Assembly: GCA_041645555.1 (NCBI GenBank)
Contig: JBAZPX010000004.1
Span: forward strand, 10,334 to 74,333
Source: Patescibacteria group bacterium
GTDB taxonomy: Bacteria; Patescibacteriota; Patescibacteriia; Patescibacteriales; JAQTRU01
Direction of reading: 5' to 3'
Length of the DNA stretch: 64,000 nucleotides
The translations under genes were made by a program, and so were the position numbers. Position 1 is the stretch's first letter, and every line of letters begins with the position of its first letter. Below the pieces are notes generated by a model. That model saw only the letters and a list, made by a program, of their open reading frames with translations. It made no database searches and was not told where the DNA came from. This document shows, piece after piece, positions 403 to 53,611 of this stretch.

Positions 403-1620
403 ATGAAATACTTCTTCATCCTAGGCAACAATCCAACCCTATCTATAGCCGAAATTTCGGCTGTTTTTAGCCTGGGCGATAATCCAAAAGCAGAAATCCT
501 TGGCCAGGAGGTTTTTTTATTAGAAACTGAAAATAATTTTAATCCGGCCGAATTAATTAAAAAACTGGGCGGAATAATTAAAATTGGCTCGATCTCCAAT
601 GAATTTAATTTTGATAACCAAAAAATAATAGCCGAAGCGGAAAAATTAATTGATACAAATTATCAGGGAAAAATAAAATTTGGGATTTCTCATTATGGCA
701 ATAAACAACTGAATCTTAAAGTTATCGGCATGGAAATAAAAAAATGCTTGAAAGAAAAAGGCATTAGCGTCCGCTGGGTGGTAGGCCGAGATAAAGTTTT
801 ATCAAGCGTCGTGGTTGAACAAAATAAATTAATCTCACAGGGCGCGGAGATAATTTTAATTCAAAAAGATAACCACGTTTTAATCGGCAAAACTTTAGCG
901 GTCCAGCCGTTTAAAGAACTATCTTTCCGCGATTATGGCCGACCGGGCCGGGATGATTATTCCGGCATGCTCCCGCCGAAGCTGGCACAGATTATGATAA
1001 ATTTAGCCCTACCCCACCCCTCCGGCTCCTCTCTCCTAATTAGGAGAGAGGACGGGGGTGAGGTCATCCTTGACCCCTTCTGCGGCTCTGGCACGATTTT
1101 AACTGAAAGCCTGTTGATGGGCTATAAAAATTTAATCGGTTCTGATATTTCCCCGAAAGCAATTGAAGATACGAAAAAAAATGTTAAATGGATAATTGAA
1201 AATTGGAAATTGAAAATTGGAAATTTAAAATTTTATCAGCAAGATGCGCAAAAAATATCTCAGGAGATTAAATCTAACTCAATAGATTATATAATTACTG
1301 AACCCTACCTTGGCCCGCAAAGAGGGAAAATTGACATAAAAAAAATTGTCCAAGAACTAGAACAATTATATACCAAGTCATTGTCAGAATTCAGTAAAAT
1401 TTTAAAACCGGATGGATGGATAGTTATGATCTGGCCGGTCTTTCGCATAACGCATAACGTAGAACGCATAACGCCAAACATTATTGGCTTTCAAATAATC
1501 AACCCCATTCCGGAAAATTTACGGCAAGACAAGAGAATAAAATTAACCGACAGAAACACGATTATTTACGGACGTGAACAACAAAAAGTCTGGCGGGAAA
1601 TCGTGATATTAGAAAAATAA
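403..1620 (+). CDS. SAM-dependent RNA methyltransferase (Trm11/RlmL-like, THUMP-like N-terminal half)
   Basis: ORF 355-1620 trimmed to ATG 403 (MKYFFILGNNP). Class I methyltransferase motif I ILDPFCGSGT and motif IV-like ITEPYLG. Confidence 0.6.
   Translation: MKYFFILGNNPTLSIAEISAVFSLGDNPKAEILGQEVFLLETENNFNPAELIKKLGGIIKIGSISNEFNFDNQKIIAEAEKLIDTNYQGKIKFGISHYGNKQLNLKVIGMEIKKCLKEKGISVRWVVGRDKVLSSVVVEQNKLISQGAEIILIQKDNHVLIGKTLAVQPFKELSFRDYGRPGRDDYSGMLPPKLAQIMINLALPHPSGSSLLIRREDGGEVILDPFCGSGTILTESLLMGYKNLIGSDISPKAIEDTKKNVKWIIENWKLKIGNLKFYQQDAQKISQEIKSNSIDYIITEPYLGPQRGKIDIKKIVQELEQLYTKSLSEFSKILKPDGWIVMIWPVFRITHNVERITPNIIGFQIINPIPENLRQDKRIKLTDRNTIIYGREQQKVWREIVILEK
1012..1063. repeat. GC-rich palindromic element inserted in-frame in the methyltransferase CDS
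   Basis: Perfect palindrome cctctctcctaa/ttaggagagagg (1028-1051) flanked by ccccacccc and gggggtgagg. It encodes PHPSGSSLLIRREDGGEV just before motif I. Same motif set as the DUF559 gene flanks at 36531-37028. Confidence 0.6.
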
Positions 1621-2390
1621 TTTAAATTAAAAAAGCTGGATTTCTCCAGCTTTTTTGGTAAGAACGGGCCGAGGATATCGGCCGTGTTTTTTATTATAAA
1701 TTCTACTTCCTCAACTACGTTTGCGAAGACTGCCTTTAGAAAATTAACTATTACCTCGCCGTCCCAACCCATAGTCTTAAAGAAAGAAACAATGAACGAT
1801 CCGGCCGCGACCACAACCCCTAGCATCATTAAATTAAATGCGAGAAACGCAACCGTGGCAATAACGAACTTTCCGACTGACGCGCCCAGCCAAACAGCCA
1901 AACCGATAGCGGCCGCTCCTAACCCAGCCGTAAAAAGAGAACTAAGGGATATCTCGGCGGCCTTGTTTGCGCCATCAAGAATTTTGTAGGTAAAACTCCG
2001 CCCGTCATTGTACAAAAAATTCAAGGCCGGACTAATTCCGTCTCGAACAAAGGAGATGCGCACGCTCCGGCCGGATTCAATGTCTCTCGCATTTACGAAC
2101 TGCTCGCCATTTTTATTCTGGAAAGACAAAGCAAGAAAAATTTTCTTTCCCGAATCCGACACGAATTCAATGATTTTTTCCTTGCCGGGATTATCGGCAA
2201 GATACTCAATCGTTGGCCATTGCGCTTTCGCAACACTGGCGATTTGCACATCACTCCCAGAAAGGATTATATCGCTTTTCGCTTCTCTCTTTCCGTCTGG
2301 GGAAAGTATGCAACTAGAGACCAAAAGATTTAAAATTGCGCCCACCAAAAAAACACGCGCAATCTTACTCAAAGCGATTTCAAAGAACAT
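1566..2390 (-). CDS. hypothetical lipoprotein/membrane protein
   Basis: ORF 1566-2420 trimmed to Met11 (MFFEIALSK). Lipobox-like LVSSC and C-terminal hydrophobic helices. The 3' end reads through the hairpin at 1630-1657 and overlaps the convergent gene, so the true C-terminus is uncertain. Confidence 0.45.
   Translation of the reverse strand: MFFEIALSKIARVFLVGAILNLLVSSCILSPDGKREAKSDIILSGSDVQIASVAKAQWPTIEYLADNPGKEKIIEFVSDSGKKIFLALSFQNKNGEQFVNARDIESGRSVRISFVRDGISPALNFLYNDGRSFTYKILDGANKAAEISLSSLFTAGLGAAAIGLAVWLGASVGKFVIATVAFLAFNLMMLGVVVAAGSFIVSFFKTMGWDGEVIVNFLKAVFANVVEEVEFIIKNTADILGPFLPKKLEKSSFFNLNYFSNITISRQTFCCSRP
1630..1657. terminator. bidirectional intrinsic terminator
   Basis: aaaaagctgga-tttc-tccagctttttt: stem agctgga/tccagct, with an A-run on one side and a T-run on the other. 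Confidence 0.6.
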
Positions 2391-6049: not shown

Positions 6050-6520
6050 CTAACCTTTAGACACATCAGCCCCGCCAACCCAATTCATACTGTTAAACAC
6101 GAAATAAGTAATGGCATAAGCTGAAACTGTAATAATTAAGCCGATTACCGCCCGCCAGATTGTTTCTTTCGCTTCCGTCATTTTTTCTTCATTGCCGGAC
6201 GCGGTCATCCATTTATACCCGGCCGTAATCATCAAAACTAAAAAAATAACGCCCAACAATCCTAAAAAAGCCTGGATTACCACGGCCAAAATTCCCGCAA
6301 AAGATGATCCGGTGGCGGCGGCAAAACCGGATTTACCCCTAAAAGCTTCCGCCTGCTCGCTACCTGCCGGGCCAAACCCTTGGGCTAAAGCCAAATCAGC
6401 GATTCTAAAATTTAAGACAGACAACACTAAAAATGCTAAAAAATAGTTTACCCCGTTAGCCCCGCTTAGAAATTTATTTCTAACGGGGTTAATAGGGTTT
6501 GTTTTTTTATAAAAATTCAT
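6050..6520 (-). CDS. TrbC/VirB2-like (T4SS pilin-like) small membrane protein, paralog 1
   Basis: Signal region plus two TM helices. Shared loop motif ITAGYKWMTASGNEEKM. Confidence 0.7.
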   Translation of the reverse strand: MNFYKKTNPINPVRNKFLSGANGVNYFLAFLVLSVLNFRIADLALAQGFGPAGSEQAEAFRGKSGFAAATGSSFAGILAVVIQAFLGLLGVIFLVLMITAGYKWMTASGNEEKMTEAKETIWRAVIGLIITVSAYAITYFVFNSMNWVGGADVSKG

Positions 6521-9095: not shown

Positions 9096-9199
9096 AAAAT
9101 TTAATTTCTTATTTTCCCCTTAACTTTCCACTTGCTCCGGACACAACAAATATTATGTCCAGAGGAGTGGATCCCCGCCAAAGGCGGGGAAACCACCTA

Positions 9200-24489: not shown

Positions 24490-24575
24490 GGGCGGATGGC
24501 GGAACTGGTAGACGCGCAAGCTTGAGGGGCTTGTGGCCGAAAGGTCGTGGAGGTTCAAGTCCTCTTCCGCCCACC
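24490..24575 (+). tRNA. tRNA-Leu (GAG), long variable arm
   Basis: Acceptor GGGCGGA/TCCGCCC, anticodon arm CAAGC-TTGAGGG-GCTTG, T arm GGAGG-TTCAAGT-CCTCT. A partial CC follows the discriminator. Confidence 0.9.
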
Positions 24576-24747: not shown

Positions 24748-24932
24748 GGGCGCATAGCTTCCTCCTTCGTCCCGCCAAAGGCGGGACTTCGGACGGACAA
24801 GCAGTTGGCCCGCCTCGCCGAGCTGAAGCTCGGCTTCAGCGAGGCGGGTTAGAGCATCTCGTTTACACCGAGAGGGCCCTGGGTTCGTCGGGTCATCCGA
24901 CCCGACGCCCAGCCGGATGACTGGGCGAATCC
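24748..24932 (+). pseudogene. tRNA-Val(TAC)-like copy interrupted by three ~40-nt GC-rich hairpin insertions and lacking the 3' acceptor strand
   Basis: Segments gggcgcatagct / cagttgg / ttagagcatctcgtttacaccgagagggccctgggttcg / aatcc are identical to the intact gene at 24977-25050. Inserts lie at 24760-24801, 24809-24848 and 24888-24927. Confidence 0.75.
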
Positions 24933-24976
24933 GCCGTAATAATTTATTAAATAGTTAAAAAAATTAATCATAAGTT

Positions 24977-25050
24977 GGGCGCATAGCTCAGTTGGTTAGA
25001 GCATCTCGTTTACACCGAGAGGGCCCTGGGTTCGAATCCTAGTGCGCCCA
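24977..25050 (+). tRNA. tRNA-Val (TAC)
   Basis: Acceptor GGGCGCA/TGCGCCC, anticodon arm TCTCG-TTTACAC-CGAGA, T arm CTGGG-TTCGAAT-CCTAG. Confidence 0.9.
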
Positions 25051-25057
25051 CATAAAA

Positions 25058-25090
25058 AACAGCTCCGAGCGCTCGGGGTTGTTTTTTTAT
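25058..25090 (+). terminator. intrinsic terminator after the tRNA cluster
   Basis: cagctccgagcgctcggggttg followed by ttttttt. Confidence 0.6.
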
Positions 25091-25126: not shown

Positions 25127-25609
25127 ATGAAGAAAATAATAACCAATTCGGAAAAAAAAACTTTGGCCTTGGCTAAAAAATACGCCAAAACTTTAAAAAG
25201 CGGGACAATACTGGGCTTAATCGGAAATTTAGGCGCGGGTAAAACCGTTTTTATTAAAGGCCTAGCCCAAGGTTTGGGGCTTAAAAAAAATATTACCAGC
25301 CCGACTTTTGTAATAATGAAGGTTTACCCTATTAAATCGCGCTCAACGCGAATTTTGCCAAAGGCAAAATTATTTGACGGGGCATACCCCATTAAAAAGG
25401 GAAAAATTAAAAACCTTGTCCATATTGACGCTTACCGCCTTAAATCGGCCGGGGATTTAATCGCTATCGGCGCGGGAGAGTACTTTAACCGGACCGGGAC
25501 CTTAACCGTAATTGAATGGGCGGACAAGATTAAAAAAGTCTTGCCAAAAAGGACAAAATACGTTAAGATAAAAATCTTAGAAGGTAATAAAAGGGAAATT
25601 AAATATTAA
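25127..25609 (+). CDS. tsaE: tRNA t6A biosynthesis ATPase TsaE
   Basis: GNLGAGKTVFIKGLAQGLG..SPTF..HIDAYRL. Carries a 20-codon insertion (separate feature). Confidence 0.8.
   Translation: MKKIITNSEKKTLALAKKYAKTLKSGTILGLIGNLGAGKTVFIKGLAQGLGLKKNITSPTFVIMKVYPIKSRSTRILPKAKLFDGAYPIKKGKIKNLVHIDAYRLKSAGDLIAIGAGEYFNRTGTLTVIEWADKIKKVLPKRTKYVKIKILEGNKREIKY
25325..25396. repeat. 60-nt in-frame insertion in tsaE bounded by a 12-nt direct repeat
   Basis: taccctattaaa (25325-25336), then a 48-nt segment with hairpins tcgcg-ctcaa-cgcga and ttttgcc-aaa-ggcaaaa, then taccccattaaa (25385-25396). Duplicates the peptide YPIK. Confidence 0.7.
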
Positions 25610-29176: not shown

Positions 29177-29378
29177 CAAATATAAAAATCAACTCTTGCC
29201 CTACCGGTTGAGAAAGACCTTGTAAATAAAACCAGACCAGGTTTTTATTAAATGATTGTAAAGCATAAAAGTTGAATCACATAAAAAATTTTAGCATGTT
29301 TATAATAACCCTGCTTTCGTTCGTCTTTGCGGACTGTGTCCGCCGTAGTCGATCCCGCTTGAGCGGGAGAGGCGAAGG

Positions 29379-29452
29379 CGGAGCGGACGGGACTCGGACC
29401 CGCGACCTCCTGCGTGACAGGCAGGCGTTCTAACCAACTGAACTACCGCTCC
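29379..29452 (-). tRNA. tRNA-Asp (GTC)
   Basis: Reverse complement: acceptor GGAGCGG/CCGCTCC, anticodon arm CCTGC-CTGTCAC-GCAGG, T arm GCGGG-TCCGAGT-CCCGT. Confidence 0.85.
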
Positions 29453-29583
29453 AAAATAAAAATAGTTTTTCAACTATTAAAAATCCTTAGCTAAACAATA
29501 ACAAAAAATAAGGTAATAGTCAATATAAGCCAATATAAAAAATCCCGCCAGAATTCAGCGGGATTTCAAAAGACTCTTTTTTA

Positions 29584-36517: not shown

Positions 36518-36530
36518 ATCCAAACACCGC

Positions 36531-37028
36531 ACCTCACCCCCCGTCCAAACTACCTCACCCCCGACCCCTCCCCTAGTCAGGGGAGGGGGAATTAAATAAA
36601 TCTTTTCTGATTTTATTTAAAACTGCTTCTATATTATTCTCAACTTCTTTATTTTTAAATCTTATAATTTTATAGCCGGCTTGCTTTAAGATATCTTCTC
36701 TAATTAAGTCCACTTCTTTTATCTCCCTTTTATTATGAACTCCGCCGTCAATTTCTATTATCAATCTTTTTTGGGGACAATAAAAATCAATAATAAAATT
36801 ATAAACTCCCAAAACCAATGGCTCCTGCCGCCTAAATCTAAAGCCTAATTTTCCATCCCCTAGTTCTCTCCAAAGTATTTTTTCGGCTTTGGTCATATCC
36901 TGCCGAAGCGCTTTAGCTATATATAATATTTTTGTATTTCCCGACATATAGATATCATCTCCCCCGGCCCCTCTCCTGACTAGGAGAGGGGAAGCGATCC
37001 GCCAGCTGGCGGAGAGACGGGGTGAGGT
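36531..37028. mobile_element. DUF559 endonuclease gene unit bounded by inverted GC-rich ends (putative selfish element)
   Basis: acctcacccc (36531-36540) is the exact reverse complement of ggggtgaggt (37019-37028). Internal palindromes cccctcccc-tagtca-ggggagggg (36565-36588) and cccctctcctgac/taggagagggg (36968-36991). Confidence 0.45.
36573..36947 (-). CDS. DUF559 (Vsr/restriction-endonuclease-like) domain protein
   Basis: ORF trimmed to MSGNTKILY. LR...T.AE..LW..L......FRRQ....Y..DFYC....L.IE.DG..H, then IIRF.N.EV. Confidence 0.7.
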   Translation of the reverse strand: MSGNTKILYIAKALRQDMTKAEKILWRELGDGKLGFRFRRQEPLVLGVYNFIIDFYCPQKRLIIEIDGGVHNKREIKEVDLIREDILKQAGYKIIRFKNKEVENNIEAVLNKIRKDLFNSPSPD

Positions 37029-37041
37029 GCGGGCCGTAAAA

Positions 37042-37977
37042 TCACCCAACAATCGAAATTTTCGTTCCATCAATCACAACCTCATCTCCATTTTTTAAAA
37101 TCTTAGTCGCATTTTTAACGTTCACCAGGCAGGGTTTTTTTGCCTCCCGCGCCAAAGTCGCGACGTGGCAGGTCAAACTTCCTCTTTCTATAATAAAGCC
37201 AGAGATATGGCTGCGCAAGGTCGGCAATAATTTCATATCTGAATCAGGCAAAACTACAATATCTCCTTTAACAACTTTATTTTTATCTTTAGCGGTTTTT
37301 ATAATTCTAACTTTGCCTTTGGCCTTGCCGGGTGCGGCCAAAACTCCGGATAACTCTTTAAAAGGACTAGCCCTTAATTCTTTCTCCAATTCTTTTTTCA
37401 TATTTTTAAAATCTTTTATTAAAATGGTTTTTATGCCCATTCTTTTAGCGTCAATCAAATTACTCTCATTATCATCTATATAAATTACTTCTTCCGGTTT
37501 TACCTTAAACCTTTTTAAGACTAACCTCAAGGTCTCTTCGCTCGCTTTAGGCAAATTAAGCTCCCAGGTATTGATAATATTTTTAAATATTTTTTTTAAA
37601 CCAAATTTTTTTGTTACGTCCGCCAGCTGGCTGCGGGTATTTTTGGAAAGAAGCAAGGTCTTATAACCCCCTTTATTAAGCTCCCGATTTAATTTAACCG
37701 TTTCTTTATTAAGTTTCATTAAGCTATAATGCAATTTTTTAATTTCCGGCAGAGAAATCGGCAATTTAAAATAATCAATCGGTTCAAGCCAGGCTTGTTT
37801 CTGCGTGATCTTCCTGGTGGCAGCTAAATTCATATATTTATGATAAAAAACCTTGTGGTAATCCTGCCAGCGGCCGCCGAATTCCTTAGCCAAAGCTTTG
37901 GCGGTATTGGGATAACCCTCATTTAAAACTAAACCATAGCAATCAAAAATAATAAGCTTTATTTTATTCTTTCCCAT
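37042..37977 (-). CDS. HAD-like hydrolase fused to a PEP-utilising phosphohistidine swivel domain
   Basis: HAD motifs IIFDCYG, LLLSKNT and YIDDNESN. C-terminal GSLTCHVATLAREAKKPCLV. Confidence 0.7.
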   Translation of the reverse strand: MGKNKIKLIIFDCYGLVLNEGYPNTAKALAKEFGGRWQDYHKVFYHKYMNLAATRKITQKQAWLEPIDYFKLPISLPEIKKLHYSLMKLNKETVKLNRELNKGGYKTLLLSKNTRSQLADVTKKFGLKKIFKNIINTWELNLPKASEETLRLVLKRFKVKPEEVIYIDDNESNLIDAKRMGIKTILIKDFKNMKKELEKELRASPFKELSGVLAAPGKAKGKVRIIKTAKDKNKVVKGDIVVLPDSDMKLLPTLRSHISGFIIERGSLTCHVATLAREAKKPCLVNVKNATKILKNGDEVVIDGTKISIVG

Positions 37978-47596: not shown

Positions 47597-47672
47597 AATT
47601 TTAAATAATAAAAATTAATTTACTTTTTATTATCTTGATGCCTAAATTCGCTTGGAGCGAAGTCGCAACCCT

Positions 47673-47713
47673 GTCATTGCGAGTCCTGCCCGCAGGCGGG
47701 GCGAAGCAATCTC
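47673..47713. repeat. gtcattgcgag...cgaagcaatc element, copy a
   Basis: gtcattgcgagtcctgcccgcaggcggggcgaagcaatctc, with an internal hairpin cctgcccgc-a-ggcgggg. Confidence 0.7.
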
Positions 47714-47806: not shown

Positions 47807-48466
47807 TTAAACCTGAGATTGCTTCGTCGCTACGCTCCTCGCAATGACATGCGCCACACCAGCCACTGGCCCGAAACTAAAACGATGAATCGGGCAGGGC
47901 CCGTATTTTTTTAAATTCTCCAAATGCAATTTAGTGCCATAGCCTTTATGCCGGTCAAAGCCGTACTGCGGATACTGTTCATGGAATTTTTTCATCAATC
48001 TGTCCCGGGTTACTTTGGCGATAATGGAAGCGGCCGCAATGGAAAAAACAAGGCTGTCCCCCTTTATAATATTTTTCTGCTCACCAGAATAATTGGGGAT
48101 TTTAAATCCGCCGTCAAGCAAAACGAAATCCGGTTTTTCCTTTAAAGCCCCCAAAGCTTTTTTCATGGCCAAAAAAGTCGCCTGAAAAATATTTATTTTA
48201 TCAATGGTTTTATTGTCGCAAATGCCGATTCCGATTCCAAATTGCTCTTCAATAACAGAGAACAGTTCTTCCCGCCGGGAAGCGTTTAAAATTTTAGAAT
48301 CCGCTATCAGTTTTAATTTCTCATCTTCGGCAATAAATCCGGCCGGCAAAACCACGCAGGCGGCCACGACCGGGCCGGCTAAAGGCCCCCGACCGGCTTC
48401 GTCCAGGCTGGCGATTAGTTTATAACCTAAAGAAAATAAATTTTTTTCTTCTAATAAATCCAACAT
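47807..48466 (-). CDS. rnhB: ribonuclease HII
   Basis: DEAGRGPLAGPVVAA and DSK motifs. The last ~14 codons come from the repeat element. Confidence 0.85.
   Translation of the reverse strand: MLDLLEEKNLFSLGYKLIASLDEAGRGPLAGPVVAACVVLPAGFIAEDEKLKLIADSKILNASRREELFSVIEEQFGIGIGICDNKTIDKINIFQATFLAMKKALGALKEKPDFVLLDGGFKIPNYSGEQKNIIKGDSLVFSIAAASIIAKVTRDRLMKKFHEQYPQYGFDRHKGYGTKLHLENLKKYGPCPIHRFSFGPVAGVAHVIARSVATKQSQV
47815..47848. repeat. gtcattgcgag...cgaagcaatc element, copy b (inverted; forms the rnhB C-terminal tail)
   Basis: gagattgcttcgtcgctacgctcctcgcaatgac encodes ..VIARSVATKQSQV at the end of rnhB. Confidence 0.7.
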
Positions 48467-51948: not shown

Positions 51949-52002
51949 AACGAATGATGTGTGGGCACAAAATAACATTTTTAGATTAAAATCATTGTGC
52001 GT

Positions 52003-52055
52003 GAGATTGCTTCGTCAGTCGTCCCGAAGGCTCGGGACTCCTTCCTCGCAATGAC
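52003..52055. repeat. gtcattgcgag...cgaagcaatc element, copy d (inverted, with a nested hairpin insertion)
   Basis: gagattgcttcgtc-[agtcgtcccgaaggctcgggactcc]-ttcctcgcaatgac. Confidence 0.65.
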
Positions 52056-52154
52056 ATGATAAATGTTCTACGAAAAACAATTAGCCAAAAAACAAAAAAG
52101 CCCACCTATCAGTTTTTACTGAAGTGGACTTTTACATTTACGAAGACTGGCAGA

Positions 52155-52455: not shown

Positions 52456-52695
52456 TCATACTAAATGCTTATTAGTAAAAGCACAACCAGAACTTGATTT
52501 TAGATATTTCTCAAATTTATAAGCTTTTTGTTTCTCAGCAAAAGCGGAATACCATCTTAGTATATAAGGTCGCCTTGTGCTTGAATATCGCGCATTCCCG
52601 GAATTATGCTCTTCTAATCTTCGTTTTAAATCAGAAGTCACGCCAATATAGCGGCTTTCATCCTTTTTGCTCTGCAATATATAAGTATAATACAT
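52456..52695 (-). CDS. GIY-YIG nuclease-family protein (UPF0213/YhbQ-like)
   Basis: YYTYILQS..SRYIGVTSDLKRRLEEHN. Confidence 0.75.
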   Translation of the reverse strand: MYYTYILQSKKDESRYIGVTSDLKRRLEEHNSGNARYSSTRRPYILRWYSAFAEKQKAYKFEKYLKSSSGCAFTNKHLV

Positions 52696-52823
52696 ACATT
52701 TTGCGGCCCCACTCCGTCAAGACTCCGCGGGGCACCACTTCGCCTATTTTATGTTTGTTATACTTAATCAATTTTATATGTGCTGTGCACCGCGAAGCTC
52801 CGAGGTTAAACCGAGGAGCGAAG

Positions 52824-52900
52824 TGGTGGACCTTAAGGGATTCGAACCCTTGACCCCTTCCATGCCATGGAAGTGCTCTAGCCAGCTGAGCTAAAGGCCC
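52824..52900 (-). tRNA. tRNA-Ala (GGC), CCA encoded
   Basis: Reverse complement: acceptor GGGCCTT/AAGGTCC with the G3-U70 identity pair, anticodon arm CTTCC-ATGGCAT-GGAAG, T arm AAGGG-TTCGAAT-CCCTT. Confidence 0.9.
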
Positions 52901-53057: not shown

Positions 53058-53127
53058 ACCGATTTACAAACCAAATTCAGAAAAAACGGTTTGACCTCTG
53101 TAATCCCGCCAAGGGCGGGACGAAAGT

Positions 53128-53196
53128 GGGTGCTCTTGGCAGGAACCCCACAGTAATATTCACTTCGTTCATATTGCGCGGGGCAAGTCGAACCTG
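53128..53196 (-). pseudogene. duplicated tRNA-Arg 3' fragment (T arm plus acceptor strand) carrying a 42-nt insertion in the T loop
   Basis: gggtgctcttggcaggaa (53128-53145) and tcgaacctg (53188-53196) match 53243-53269 of the intact gene. The insert ccccacag...cgcggggcaag lies at 53146-53187. Confidence 0.7.
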
Positions 53197-53242
53197 AAAA
53201 TCAGGCCAAAAGGCCTCTGCCCTCCCCACCTGCCATCGCCTG

Positions 53243-53314
53243 TGCTCTTGGCAGGAATCGAACCTGCATCTAGGGCTTAGGAGTCCCTTGTTCTATCCAT
53301 TGAACTACAAGGGC
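53243..53314 (-). tRNA. tRNA-Arg (CCT)
   Basis: Reverse complement: acceptor GCCCTTG/CAAGAGC (one C-A mismatch at 3:70), anticodon loop CTCCTAA, T arm GCAGG-TTCGATT-CCTGC. Confidence 0.75.
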
Positions 53315-53611
53315 GAGAAAAAATCAAATTGCTTAAAAATAAAAAGTTTACCCCGTTAGAAAAATACCTTTGACTAAGTCGAAGGTATATAATATTCTAT
53401 CGCAATTAGCAATAAAAAGCTACTGGGAAACAACGCATTTCTAATGGGGTGAATTAGAAATCCACAGTCTAAATACCATCTTAACCTATATTTTTACTTT
53501 TGACAAACCCCCCTCATTAACCTACAATTAACTAGAAGGAGGATCTTAAAATGATAACTCTAAAAGGCAAATAAACTCGGGTAAAAAGGGGGATTTGCCT
53601 GCCTAAAAACT

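Follow-up and report, generated by a model that had tools for sequence, protein, structure and literature searches.

What produces a tRNA gene that is interrupted three times by GC-rich hairpins and stops short of its 3' end, close to an intact gene of identical sequence? This question is raised by a 64,000-nucleotide (nt) stretch of contig JBAZPX010000004.1 (assembly GCA_041645555.1, Patescibacteria group bacterium, JAQTRU01), hereafter the window, in which a broken copy of tRNA-Val(TAC) at 24748-24932 precedes the intact gene. An initial annotation had explained the copy as a duplicate that became a landing pad for small palindromic elements and then decayed. This explanation fared poorly: relatives carry hairpins at matching tRNA positions, the tRNA-derived parts are identical at 63 of 63 nt, unlike a decaying pseudogene, and the arrangement is tied to genes for small GIY-YIG nucleases. 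We favour, with moderate confidence, a reading in which the broken copy is the left-hand relic of a tRNA-associated selfish GIY-YIG cassette whose nuclease gene was lost from this site or was never present. We do so because the same layout occurs at this locus in relatives and at other tRNA genes, the window lacking only the open reading frame (ORF), and because the core of the first insert belongs to a hairpin family found in GIY-YIG leaders, in a genome that has both a GIY-YIG gene and another broken tRNA.

The broken tRNA-Val copy and its inserts

The locus has the order L19 (24129-24467), tRNA-Leu(GAG), an AT-rich stretch, the broken copy, a 44-nt spacer, tRNA-Val(TAC), a terminator-like hairpin and tsaE (25127-25609), with coordinates of the individual parts given in Table 1. 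Once the inserts are left out, the four tRNA-derived pieces join to the first 63 nt of the intact tRNA-Val; the longest of them, positions 20-58, runs from the remainder of the D arm through the intact TAC anticodon stem-loop and the variable loop to the T stem's 5' strand and the T-loop TTCG. The 3' strands of the T stem and of the acceptor stem are absent, TAGTGCGCCCA occurring solely in the intact copy, and the missing 3' end that a permuted or split gene would need was not found elsewhere in the window. ARAGORN on the region, a check that had been proposed with the initial annotation, called the intact tRNA-Val alone, as did Rfam even at E <= 10, and ARAGORN with introns allowed found nothing in the broken copy. 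A gathering scan of the window together with a permissive scan of the locus returned six intact tRNAs only from Rfam, and no match for the broken copy or for the GIY-YIG leader described below. The earlier conclusion that 24748-24932 is a non-functional, 3'-truncated duplicate of tRNA-Val, dead as a tRNA, is thereby secure.

The 659-nt intergenic sequence was 100% identical in a Joint Genome Institute (JGI) metagenome contig, and parts of it were exact in contigs of two European Nucleotide Archive (ENA) assemblies. Because independent assemblies reproduce the locus exactly, the broken copy with its three inserts is real and not an assembly artefact. Contigs of independent assemblies also stop inside or just after the Leu-Val locus (compared loci are numbered with an L: L001, L002, L004 and L005, all of the same species, and L024, L034, L043, L070 and L080), which suggests assembly-breaking repeats or strain heterogeneity there.

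As described before, the interruptions are discrete GC-rich hairpin units. Their GC content was 64-75% compared to 40% for the whole window, and none of 200 shuffles of each insert folded as well (z -4.3 to -5.0). All stems in the window are perfect Watson-Crick palindromes. The earlier description of each insert as a single hairpin required revision: insert 1 is a composite in which a core hairpin (GTCCCGCC-AAA-GGCGGGAC, 24769-24787), with CTTCG on each side, is enclosed by an outer stem, and insert 3 consists of two adjacent hairpins (TCGGGTC-ATCC-GACCCGA and CGCCCAG-CCGGATGA-CTGGGCG), while insert 2 has the arms CCCGCCTCGC...GCGAGGCGGG. Likewise, the placement of insert 2 in the D loop and of insert 3 in the T loop stood, whereas insert 1, also assigned to the D loop, separates positions 12 and 13, within the D stem on its 5' strand. 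Neither target-site duplications nor terminal inverted repeats were seen at the inserts, only a border ambiguity of 2 nt (GG at insert 2, CG at insert 3). Whole inserts were single copy in the window, with partial matches for the insert-1 core only, at 9174 and 53104.

Removal of the inserts restores the tRNA sequence exactly and the inserts lie in or next to loops, as would be required of a functional split or multi-intron tRNA from which the hairpins are spliced out. This possibility, already thought unlikely in the initial annotation, is extremely improbable. Introns of the archaeal type have bulge-helix-bulge junctions, a splicing endonuclease and exons that add up to a full tRNA, and group I introns in tRNA genes are roughly 200 nt or longer, with a catalytic core and a U at the 5' splice site. 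Here the exons fall short of a full tRNA, with no 3' T-stem or acceptor strand nearby, the genome is bacterial (bL19, TsaE, LspA), an identical intact gene lies 44 nt away, and hairpins in relatives replace 6-7 tRNA nt, so that their excision cannot restore a tRNA. Group I introns that interrupt tRNA genes, causing standard tools to overlook these genes, have been described in Patescibacteria, in papers that mention neither GIY-YIG nor hairpin-bearing fragments (PMC13011429; bioRxiv 10.1101/2025.07.03.662931). The present case shares the phylum and the interrupted tRNA genes with them, but its inserts, at 40 nt, fall far below the length of such introns, lack a ribozyme core and any match to Rfam RF00028, and are not splice-competent.

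Table 1 Features of the tRNA-Val locus, the second tRNA cluster and a further hairpin module in the window, and tRNA positions at which hairpins recur among the compared loci
Feature	Position or loci	Strand	Evidence or remark
tRNA-Leu(GAG)	24490-24575	+	ARAGORN; Rfam 51 bits; opens the conserved L19-tRNA-Leu-tRNA-Val array
Broken copy, tRNA-Val positions 1-12 (5' acceptor strand, U8-A9, first 3 D-stem nt)	24748-24759	+	identical to 24977-24988
Insert 1, 42 nt, 64% GC, between positions 12 and 13	24760-24801	+	-22.6 kcal/mol, z -4.3
Broken copy, positions 13-19 (CAGTTGG)	24802-24808	+	sequence identity
Insert 2, 40 nt, 75% GC, D loop	24809-24848	+	-29.8 kcal/mol, z -5.0
Broken copy, positions 20-58	24849-24887	+	41-nt exact repeat with 24994-25034
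Insert 3, 40 nt, 72% GC, T loop	24888-24927	+	-24.6 kcal/mol, z -4.4
Broken copy, positions 59-63 (AATCC); tRNA similarity stops after it	24928-24932	+	sequence identity
AT-rich spacer, 44 nt	24933-24976	+	position occupied by GIY-YIG ORF in relatives
Intact tRNA-Val(TAC)	24977-25051	+	ARAGORN; Rfam 71.2 bits
Intrinsic-terminator-like hairpin at end of tRNA array	25054-25087	+	sequence
GIY-YIG nuclease gene, single-domain, 79 aa, Slx1/UPF0213-like	52456-52695	-	Pfam PF01541, E 2.9e-17
Structured leader, tRNA-Ala to GIY-YIG gene	52696-52823	-	covariance model R1, 110.5 bits (match 52695-52835)
CTTTCG and hairpin TCCCGCC-CTTG-GCGGGA, directly after the tRNA-Arg fragment	53098-53129	-	insert-1 core match
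3' fragment of tRNA-Arg(CCT), T arm and 3' acceptor strand	53130-53197	-	43 nt downstream of intact gene
Intact tRNA-Arg(CCT)	53242-53314	-	sequence
Hairpin module overlapping last 5 nt of tRNA-Asp	29340-29381	-	CCGCCTTCGCC-[TCCCGC-TCAA-GCGGGA]-..CGACTACGGCGG
Hairpins at 12/13 or 13/14	window, L008, L009 (both copies), L020, L064; Cys/Ser fragments of L155, L115		block mapping and inspection
Hairpins at 17-19	window, L050, L080, L139 (17/18 in L050, L080, L139)		
Hairpins at 21/22	L008, L009, L064		
Hairpins replacing roughly positions 24-32 (anticodon-stem 5' strand)	L009, L010, L032		
Hairpins in T loop after GGTTCG	window, L020, L030, L032, L150; window's tRNA-Arg fragment		

Fragments and hairpins at the same locus in relatives

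An L19 protein scan, taking one genome per species, yielded 80 loci from Patescibacteria of the Parcubacteria/Falkowbacteria type. The order L19-tRNA-Leu(GAG)-tRNA-Val(TAC) was kept in nearly all of them, with a Leu-Val spacer usually of 5-50 nt. Fragments of tRNA-Val or tRNA-Leu occurred at the locus in approximately 17 of the 80 species, most of them with GC-rich hairpins, and long spacers usually held such objects. Only fragments of at least about 14 nt or colinear sets were counted, shorter k-mer matches being at chance level; pooled 9-11 nt k-mer screens were dominated by chance matches and were discarded. Broken 5' copies of tRNA-Val interrupted by hairpins were found in L008, L009 (two copies), L010, L020, L021, L050, L064 and L080, uninterrupted halves in L008, L019 and L026, and 3' fragments downstream of the intact gene in ten loci (L008, L010, L019, L020, L025, L026, L030, L032, L046, L063). 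A hairpin-bearing broken tRNA-Leu lay upstream of tRNA-Leu in L028 and L032, with a pair of hairpins in the T loop comparable to insert 3. In L022, L027 and L037 the spacer of ~670-680 nt holds an ordinary-looking ORF, HD-domain-like by eye, and no tRNA fragments; not every long Leu-Val spacer, then, belongs to this phenomenon.

The hairpins recur at a small set of tRNA positions across species and tRNA identities (Table 1). The frame of insert 1 (TCCTCCTTCG...CTTCGG.G.GACAAG) occupies the same position in L008, around a different core (TCCCGAGCCTTCGGGA), and recurs more loosely in L009; at least 26 nt of it are shared without change by the window and L008, compared to 84% identity for the flanking genes. 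The L008 core hairpin also occurs in the window at 52022-52037. Hairpins of the insert-2 type (CCCGCC...GGCGGG) stand at 21/22 in L008, L009 and L064 and at 17/18 in L050, L080 and L139. The layout of insert 3, a hairpin followed by a CGCCC..GGGCG hairpin between GGTTCG and AWTCC, was also found in L020 and L030 (Val) and L150 (Arg); stem sequences of this double hairpin differ among the window, L020 and L030, and the tRNA-Arg unit of L150 is almost identical to that of L030. Thus the insert-bearing architecture that the initial annotation would have expected of function rather than decay was largely found in relatives, as a shared insert-1 frame and position in the 84%-identical species and as shared hairpin positions at distant loci. 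A comparison of the inserts, the spacers and the fragment with all compared loci gave matches limited to the tRNA-derived parts and the L008 insert-1 frame, and a pattern scan of viral contigs for the insert-1 junction (GCATAGCTTCCKCCTTCG) gave two chance matches within coding regions.

Several loci show how the hairpins behave. A compensatory T-A to C-G change distinguishes those of L155 and L115; L032 has two occurrences of a 16-nt hairpin, each in place of 6-7 tRNA nt; and in L063 two tandem repeat units are distinguished by a clean 28-nt hairpin insertion. These comparisons show that the hairpins are discrete units that are kept paired and are not spliceable introns. In these loci the density of GC-rich perfect hairpins without terminator-like features was approximately 10-fold higher up to 200 nt from a tRNA gene than at greater distances (8 in 38.6 kb compared to 7 in 321 kb, p = 5.6e-5), and in the window four of eight such hairpins fell within the 3.7% of sequence next to tRNAs. 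TCCCG..CGGGA and CCCGCC..GGCGGG hairpins had six and seven copies in the 64 kb, five and six of them outside the broken tRNA-Val.

Conservation of the insert-1 frame over at least 26 nt and compensatory changes that keep hairpins paired could equally be expected of a functional structured RNA under host-level selection, for example an element for processing or stability of the tRNA-Leu/tRNA-Val transcript, or a decoy. The fragment lies within a tRNA operon with no terminator before it, and the related GIY-YIG leader covaries and has G-U pairs in the sense strand. We nevertheless consider this explanation unlikely. No part of the tRNA is consistently retained, the anticodon stem being replaced in L009, L010 and L032 and fragment ends varying from position 10 to 63; about 60 of the 80 relatives lack a fragment altogether; the sequences of inserts 2 and 3 are not conserved; and perfect Watson-Crick palindromes such as those of the window suit hairpins at the DNA level equally well.

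Some relatives have a further type of interruption. At 35/36 of an older tRNA-Val, L026, L008 and L019 have an insertion with inverted-repeat ends (TTCACCCCGTTA... / ...TAACGGGGCAAG) that splits this gene and carries a complete, different tRNA-Val, and carried and split tRNA-Val show paired compensatory differences. When the halves of L026 and L008 were rejoined and the missing CA of the anticodon loop was added, ARAGORN called a tRNA-Val(TAC). In L020 the split lies in the D loop. The broken copies of L008 and L021 are closer to the window's tRNA-Val than to their own adjacent intact gene. These patterns indicate that tRNA-Val genes at the Leu-Val locus have been interrupted repeatedly by DNA that supplies a replacement copy. 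A group I intron remnant at the 35/36 split was considered and rejected, the insertion being too short and position 35 being A and not U. In the window, a hairpin at 6447-6493 (GTTTACCCCGTTAG...CTAACGGGGTT) has arms like the inverted-repeat ends CACCCCGTTA / TAACGGGG of the tRNA-Val-carrying insertion, with a resembling GTTTACCCCGTTAGA at about 53345-53360; the 6447-6493 hairpin may be an empty element or a mere terminator.

Genes for tRNA and transfer-messenger RNA (tmRNA) are classic integration sites, and integrative elements that target them carry a replacement for the part that they displace, by which the gene is made whole again. In common with such elements, the insertions here lie in or beside a tRNA or tmRNA gene and leave one intact and one displaced partial copy. 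Short 3' fragments also lie downstream of the intact tRNA in L010, L025 and L030 and by the window's tRNA-Arg, and in L009 a tyrosine-recombinase-like ORF (1137-1724, minus strand) abuts tRNA-Val beside the two broken copies. That the fragments are att-site duplications left by integrase-mediated integration or excision is still very improbable, given that integrases duplicate the 3' part, downstream, whereas the window's duplicate is the 5' part (1-63), upstream, only 44 nt away and between conserved housekeeping genes (L19 and tRNA-Leu on one side, tsaE on the other) with no integrase. The cassettes described below differ from integrative elements in being ~0.3-0.5 kb long (the relic <0.25 kb) and without an integrase, often with the 5' part duplicated and with breakpoints in the D arm, anticodon loop or T loop.

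GIY-YIG genes beside hairpin-bearing tRNA fragments

With GIY-YIG ORFs noticed in long Leu-Val spacers as queries, tblastn identified five GIY-YIG genes in the 80 loci (~370 kb), all of them abutting tRNA-Val. In L010, L050, L064 and L080 the ORF lies between a hairpin-bearing 5' fragment and the intact tRNA-Val, and in the three ORFs read to their stop (L010, L050, L064) the TAG stop codon coincides with tRNA positions 8-10. In L032 the ORF begins 1 nt past the intact tRNA-Val and runs into a hairpin-bearing 3' fragment. A fragment was thus present at five of five loci with the gene compared to ~12 of 75 without it (Fisher p = 2.6e-4, from approximate hand counts). The proteins are 79-83 amino acids (aa) long, consist of the GIY-YIG domain alone and are 26-74% identical; their sporadic presence at five of 80 orthologous sites, in both orientations and with divergent proteins, indicates repeated gain.

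The association extended beyond tRNA-Val. A metagenome scan with the GIY-YIG protein alone (three-sequence alignment) yielded 80 further loci, of which 43 had a tRNA or tmRNA gene within 300 nt of the ORF, and all 55 such genes were co-oriented with it. Close to the ORF, tRNA and tmRNA genes had a density of 1.24 per kb, compared to 0.16 per kb in the remainder of these loci and 0.09 per kb for the window. Among loci with a tRNA shortly after the ORF, the layout of fragment, ORF and intact tRNA was found for other tRNAs and loci (L133 Val, L139 Ser, L140 Leu, L155 Cys, L115 Ser). The L133 fragment comprises positions 1-57 and ends at GGTTCG, the start point of the window's insert 3, and the Cys and Ser fragments of L155 and L115 have two hairpins at 12/13. 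Small GIY-YIG genes associated with tRNA genes and hairpin-laden tRNA fragments are therefore a recurrent pattern and apparently an undescribed one; literature searches that combined GIY-YIG with tRNA, tmRNA or Patescibacteria, or that addressed tRNA fragments or hairpins resembling REP or MITE (repetitive extragenic palindromic sequences and miniature inverted-repeat transposable elements), found no description of the arrangement in the papers covered. One locus from a scan of viral contigs (L166, IMGVR_UViG_2713897301_000001) has a GIY-YIG ORF at 16-329, the end of which overlaps the start of tRNA-Cys.

The window itself has a gene of this type in a second tRNA cluster, where 128 nt separate it from the upstream tRNA-Ala (52824-52900, minus strand). 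The gene looks active as judged from its sequence, and the closest solved structures to its product are bacterial UPF0213 (PDB 1zg2/1ywl) and SLX1. A broken tRNA-Arg lies in the same cluster, 28 kb from the broken tRNA-Val. Its fragment consists of TCAGGTTCGA, a 42-nt T-loop insert (53146-53187, between A58 and U59) that resembles the terminal hairpin of the GIY-YIG leader, and TTCCTGCCAAGAGCAC. Within the hairpin directly after it, 53104-53121 (plus strand) matches the insert-1 core over 18 nt with 94% identity, only the loop being different.

The leader between tRNA-Ala and the GIY-YIG gene is structured. In its first helix the 3' tail of the tRNA together with CTTCGC pairs with GCGAAGTGGTG; across loci in which the ORF follows a tRNA the leader is 90-180 nt long, the tail with (N)CTTCGC pairs with GCGAAG and the tail complement, and this helix changes in step with the tRNA end, for example to CACACCTTCG/CGAAGGTGTG after tRNA-Tyr. 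Beyond this helix lie a CTTCG-hairpin-CTTCG module, then one small hairpin, and last a terminal hairpin in which the internal loops are GAA/GAA. Across 23 sequences from metagenomes and genomes, 96% of cells were paired and 18 of 25 pairs had changed on both sides, compared to 0/500 shuffles and ~40% for slid controls, in an alignment that was fitted to the covariance model itself. The G-U pairs of the sense strand suggest folding at the RNA level. The model matched in further loci too, among them three in which the motif comes immediately behind a tmRNA gene (L093, L097, L101), and L094 gave two matches. A second type of leader, with two AT-rich hairpins and ACGT..AAATTT arms, lies upstream of the GIY-YIG ORF in L122, L127, L149, L157 and L162; its first hairpin includes the terminal GCCA of the upstream tRNA and varies with the tRNA end. 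Rfam had no family for either leader type.

Two features link these leaders to the broken tRNA-Val. Insert 1 has the same CTTCG-hairpin-CTTCG build, and its core family, TCC(C)GCC-loop-GGC(G)GGA, lies directly upstream of GIY-YIG ORFs in L050, L080, L115 and L155. The core itself, TCCCGCC-AAA-GGCGGGA, corresponds to TCCGCC-AAA-GGCGGA in the L080 leader, with variants in L050, L115, L155 and L032. The window contains a single full copy of the leader motif, and the Val fragment is accordingly not a copy of the whole motif. The three inserts appear to be members of a hairpin repertoire shared with the cassettes, and not unrelated transposons.

The alternative with which we began, that a local duplication of tRNA-Val served as a neutral landing pad for independent REP- or MITE-like palindromes and is decaying, with GIY-YIG genes unrelated to it, is rather unlikely in the light of these results. 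The discreteness of the hairpins is what it would predict, as are the clean 28-nt difference in L063, the nearly identical double hairpin in Val (L030) and Arg (L150) fragments, the multiple copies of several hairpin cores in the window and the absence of a GIY-YIG gene from the window's Val locus. It leaves unaccounted for the lack of any substitution in 63 tRNA-derived nt, the sharing of hairpin positions across species and tRNA identities and immediately upstream of GIY-YIG ORFs, and the fragments that flank all five GIY-YIG genes at the locus. Nor would it predict inserts without target-site duplications or terminal inverted repeats, or hairpins that are enriched at tRNA genes and not spread over intergenic DNA.

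The relic reading and its nearest known systems

In the reading that we favour, a complete cassette, as seen in relatives, comprises a hairpin-interrupted 5' part of a given tRNA, an ~80-aa single-domain Slx1-like GIY-YIG gene and the intact tRNA, with a mirror form that opens with the intact tRNA and closes with the fragment. From the window's Val locus the nuclease ORF would have been lost, or it was never there, leaving the hairpin-bearing fragment and the 44-nt spacer. We infer that such a cassette could spread in a homing-like manner, by a nuclease break in a tRNA gene followed by copying from the cassette-bearing allele, and a variable left junction would leave the displaced tRNA part behind. 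The hairpins might persist by breaking up a direct repeat that would otherwise delete the cassette, as a 5' leader of the nuclease mRNA, or both. Since the cassette lies within a tRNA operon, it would presumably be expressed by read-through from the tRNA promoter, and one intact tRNA copy is always left, so that the host would tolerate it.

Several points weigh against this reading. No GIY-YIG ORF or recognisable remnant was detected by tblastn at the window's Val locus, and the link of the Val fragment to GIY-YIG, as read from sequence, rests on architecture and hairpin family membership. For inserts 2 and 3, none of the compared loci contained a close relative in sequence, only the same layout, and conservation of the insert-1 frame would suit a fragment that is itself under selection no less than a selfish relic. 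A cassette also gives no account of the arrival of hairpins at matching positions in different tRNAs. The nuclease is an 80-aa catalytic domain without a DNA-binding domain, unlike characterised GIY-YIG homing endonucleases, and its cleavage of tRNA genes at specific sites is presumed. Alternatively, the genes may lie near tRNAs owing to a function of the nuclease in tRNA or RNA metabolism, an alternative touched by the noted fusion of GIY-YIG to a TrmH-like methyltransferase (PMC1564403).

A broader reading is more tentative. Here the GIY-YIG genes would represent a new selfish class at Patescibacteria tRNA and tmRNA genes, in which a minimal Slx1-like GIY-YIG gene is joined to a structured RNA leader, and of which the window's broken tRNA-Val would be a fossil. 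The leader would take two forms, one pairing with the 3' tail of the upstream tRNA or tmRNA and the other built from the 5' part of the downstream tRNA with its hairpin interruptions. That the unit of GIY-YIG gene and leader is a new class of element is a realistic possibility. As the nuclease has no DNA-binding domain, targeting to tRNA genes might come from the RNA or DNA hairpins, in a structure- or RNA-assisted manner.

None of the known systems fits as a family; selfish nuclease cassettes and palindromic repeats at tRNA genes are nearest. We base this on the lack of a DNA-binding domain and of an integrase, on the fact that no RAYT (REP-associated tyrosine transposase) was seen, on the duplication of 5' parts and on the stereotyped hairpin positions. 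SegB of phage T4 is a freestanding GIY-YIG homing endonuclease encoded in the T4 tRNA gene cluster (PMC2330249). As with SegB, the GIY-YIG genes here lie among tRNA genes, are sporadic among colinear relatives (5/80) and appear to travel with flanking tRNA sequence, the fragment matching the adjacent intact tRNA. An ORF beside the putative target was found in the five relatives and behind the window's tRNA-Ala, and not at the window's Val locus. In contrast to SegB, the protein is an 80-aa Slx1/UPF0213-type catalytic domain, the genes are chromosomal in bacteria and not phage-borne, and partial tRNA duplications and GC-rich hairpins accompany them.

A second comparison is with REP/REPIN elements, which have RAYT (HUH/Y1) transposases, and with the GC clusters or double-hairpin elements of AT-rich fungal mitochondrial genomes. 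Like these, the hairpins here are discrete GC-rich palindromes of 16-40 nt in an AT-rich genome, some with cores that recur within the window, and sometimes nested. They differ from REP/REPIN in being concentrated in tRNA fragments and GIY-YIG leaders, at stereotyped tRNA positions, and in having GIY-YIG and not an HUH/Y1 transposase as the candidate nuclease; the conserved GTAG/CGTC tag was not seen. No RAYT was seen either, the window's ORFs not having been screened for RAYT or IS200-like genes.

If the broader reading is true, the tRNA and tmRNA genes of highly reduced Patescibacteria genomes would be recurrent homes of an 80-aa nuclease with its hairpins. Such a unit would remodel tRNA loci, with tRNA genes being duplicated or replaced, and would cause metagenome assemblies to break there. 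A class of 'tRNA pseudogenes' could then be accounted for, as could GC-rich islands in the AT-rich genomes of the candidate phyla radiation. The widespread, functionally obscure bacterial Slx1/UPF0213 GIY-YIG proteins would gain a testable genomic behaviour, and a covarying RNA motif pairing with the 3' end of the tRNA would be new. In practice, tRNA fragments interrupted by hairpins are to be expected beside real tRNAs when genomes of these lineages are annotated by pipelines.

The window has other palindromic features. The hairpin module that overlaps the end of tRNA-Asp (Table 1) has an outer frame that matches insert 1 of the broken tRNA-Val of L009, and another GC-rich hairpin module flanks tRNA-Asp at 29543-29563. 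A repeated motif, GTCATTGCGAGG...CGAAGCAATCTC with an ATTGC/GCAAT stem, occurs at 47655-47712, 47810-47845 and 52000-52056, in both orientations and with or without a nested GC hairpin; the broken tRNA-Val of L009 contains an ATTGC-TTCG-GCAAT hairpin. Finally, an ORF at 36573-37073 (minus strand) has a C-terminal part that is DUF559/Vsr-type endonuclease-like by eye and may be another small selfish nuclease gene. It is bracketed by perfect 14-nt inverted repeats (36527-36540 / 37019-37032), with 24-nt palindromic units at 36565-36588 and 36968-36991.

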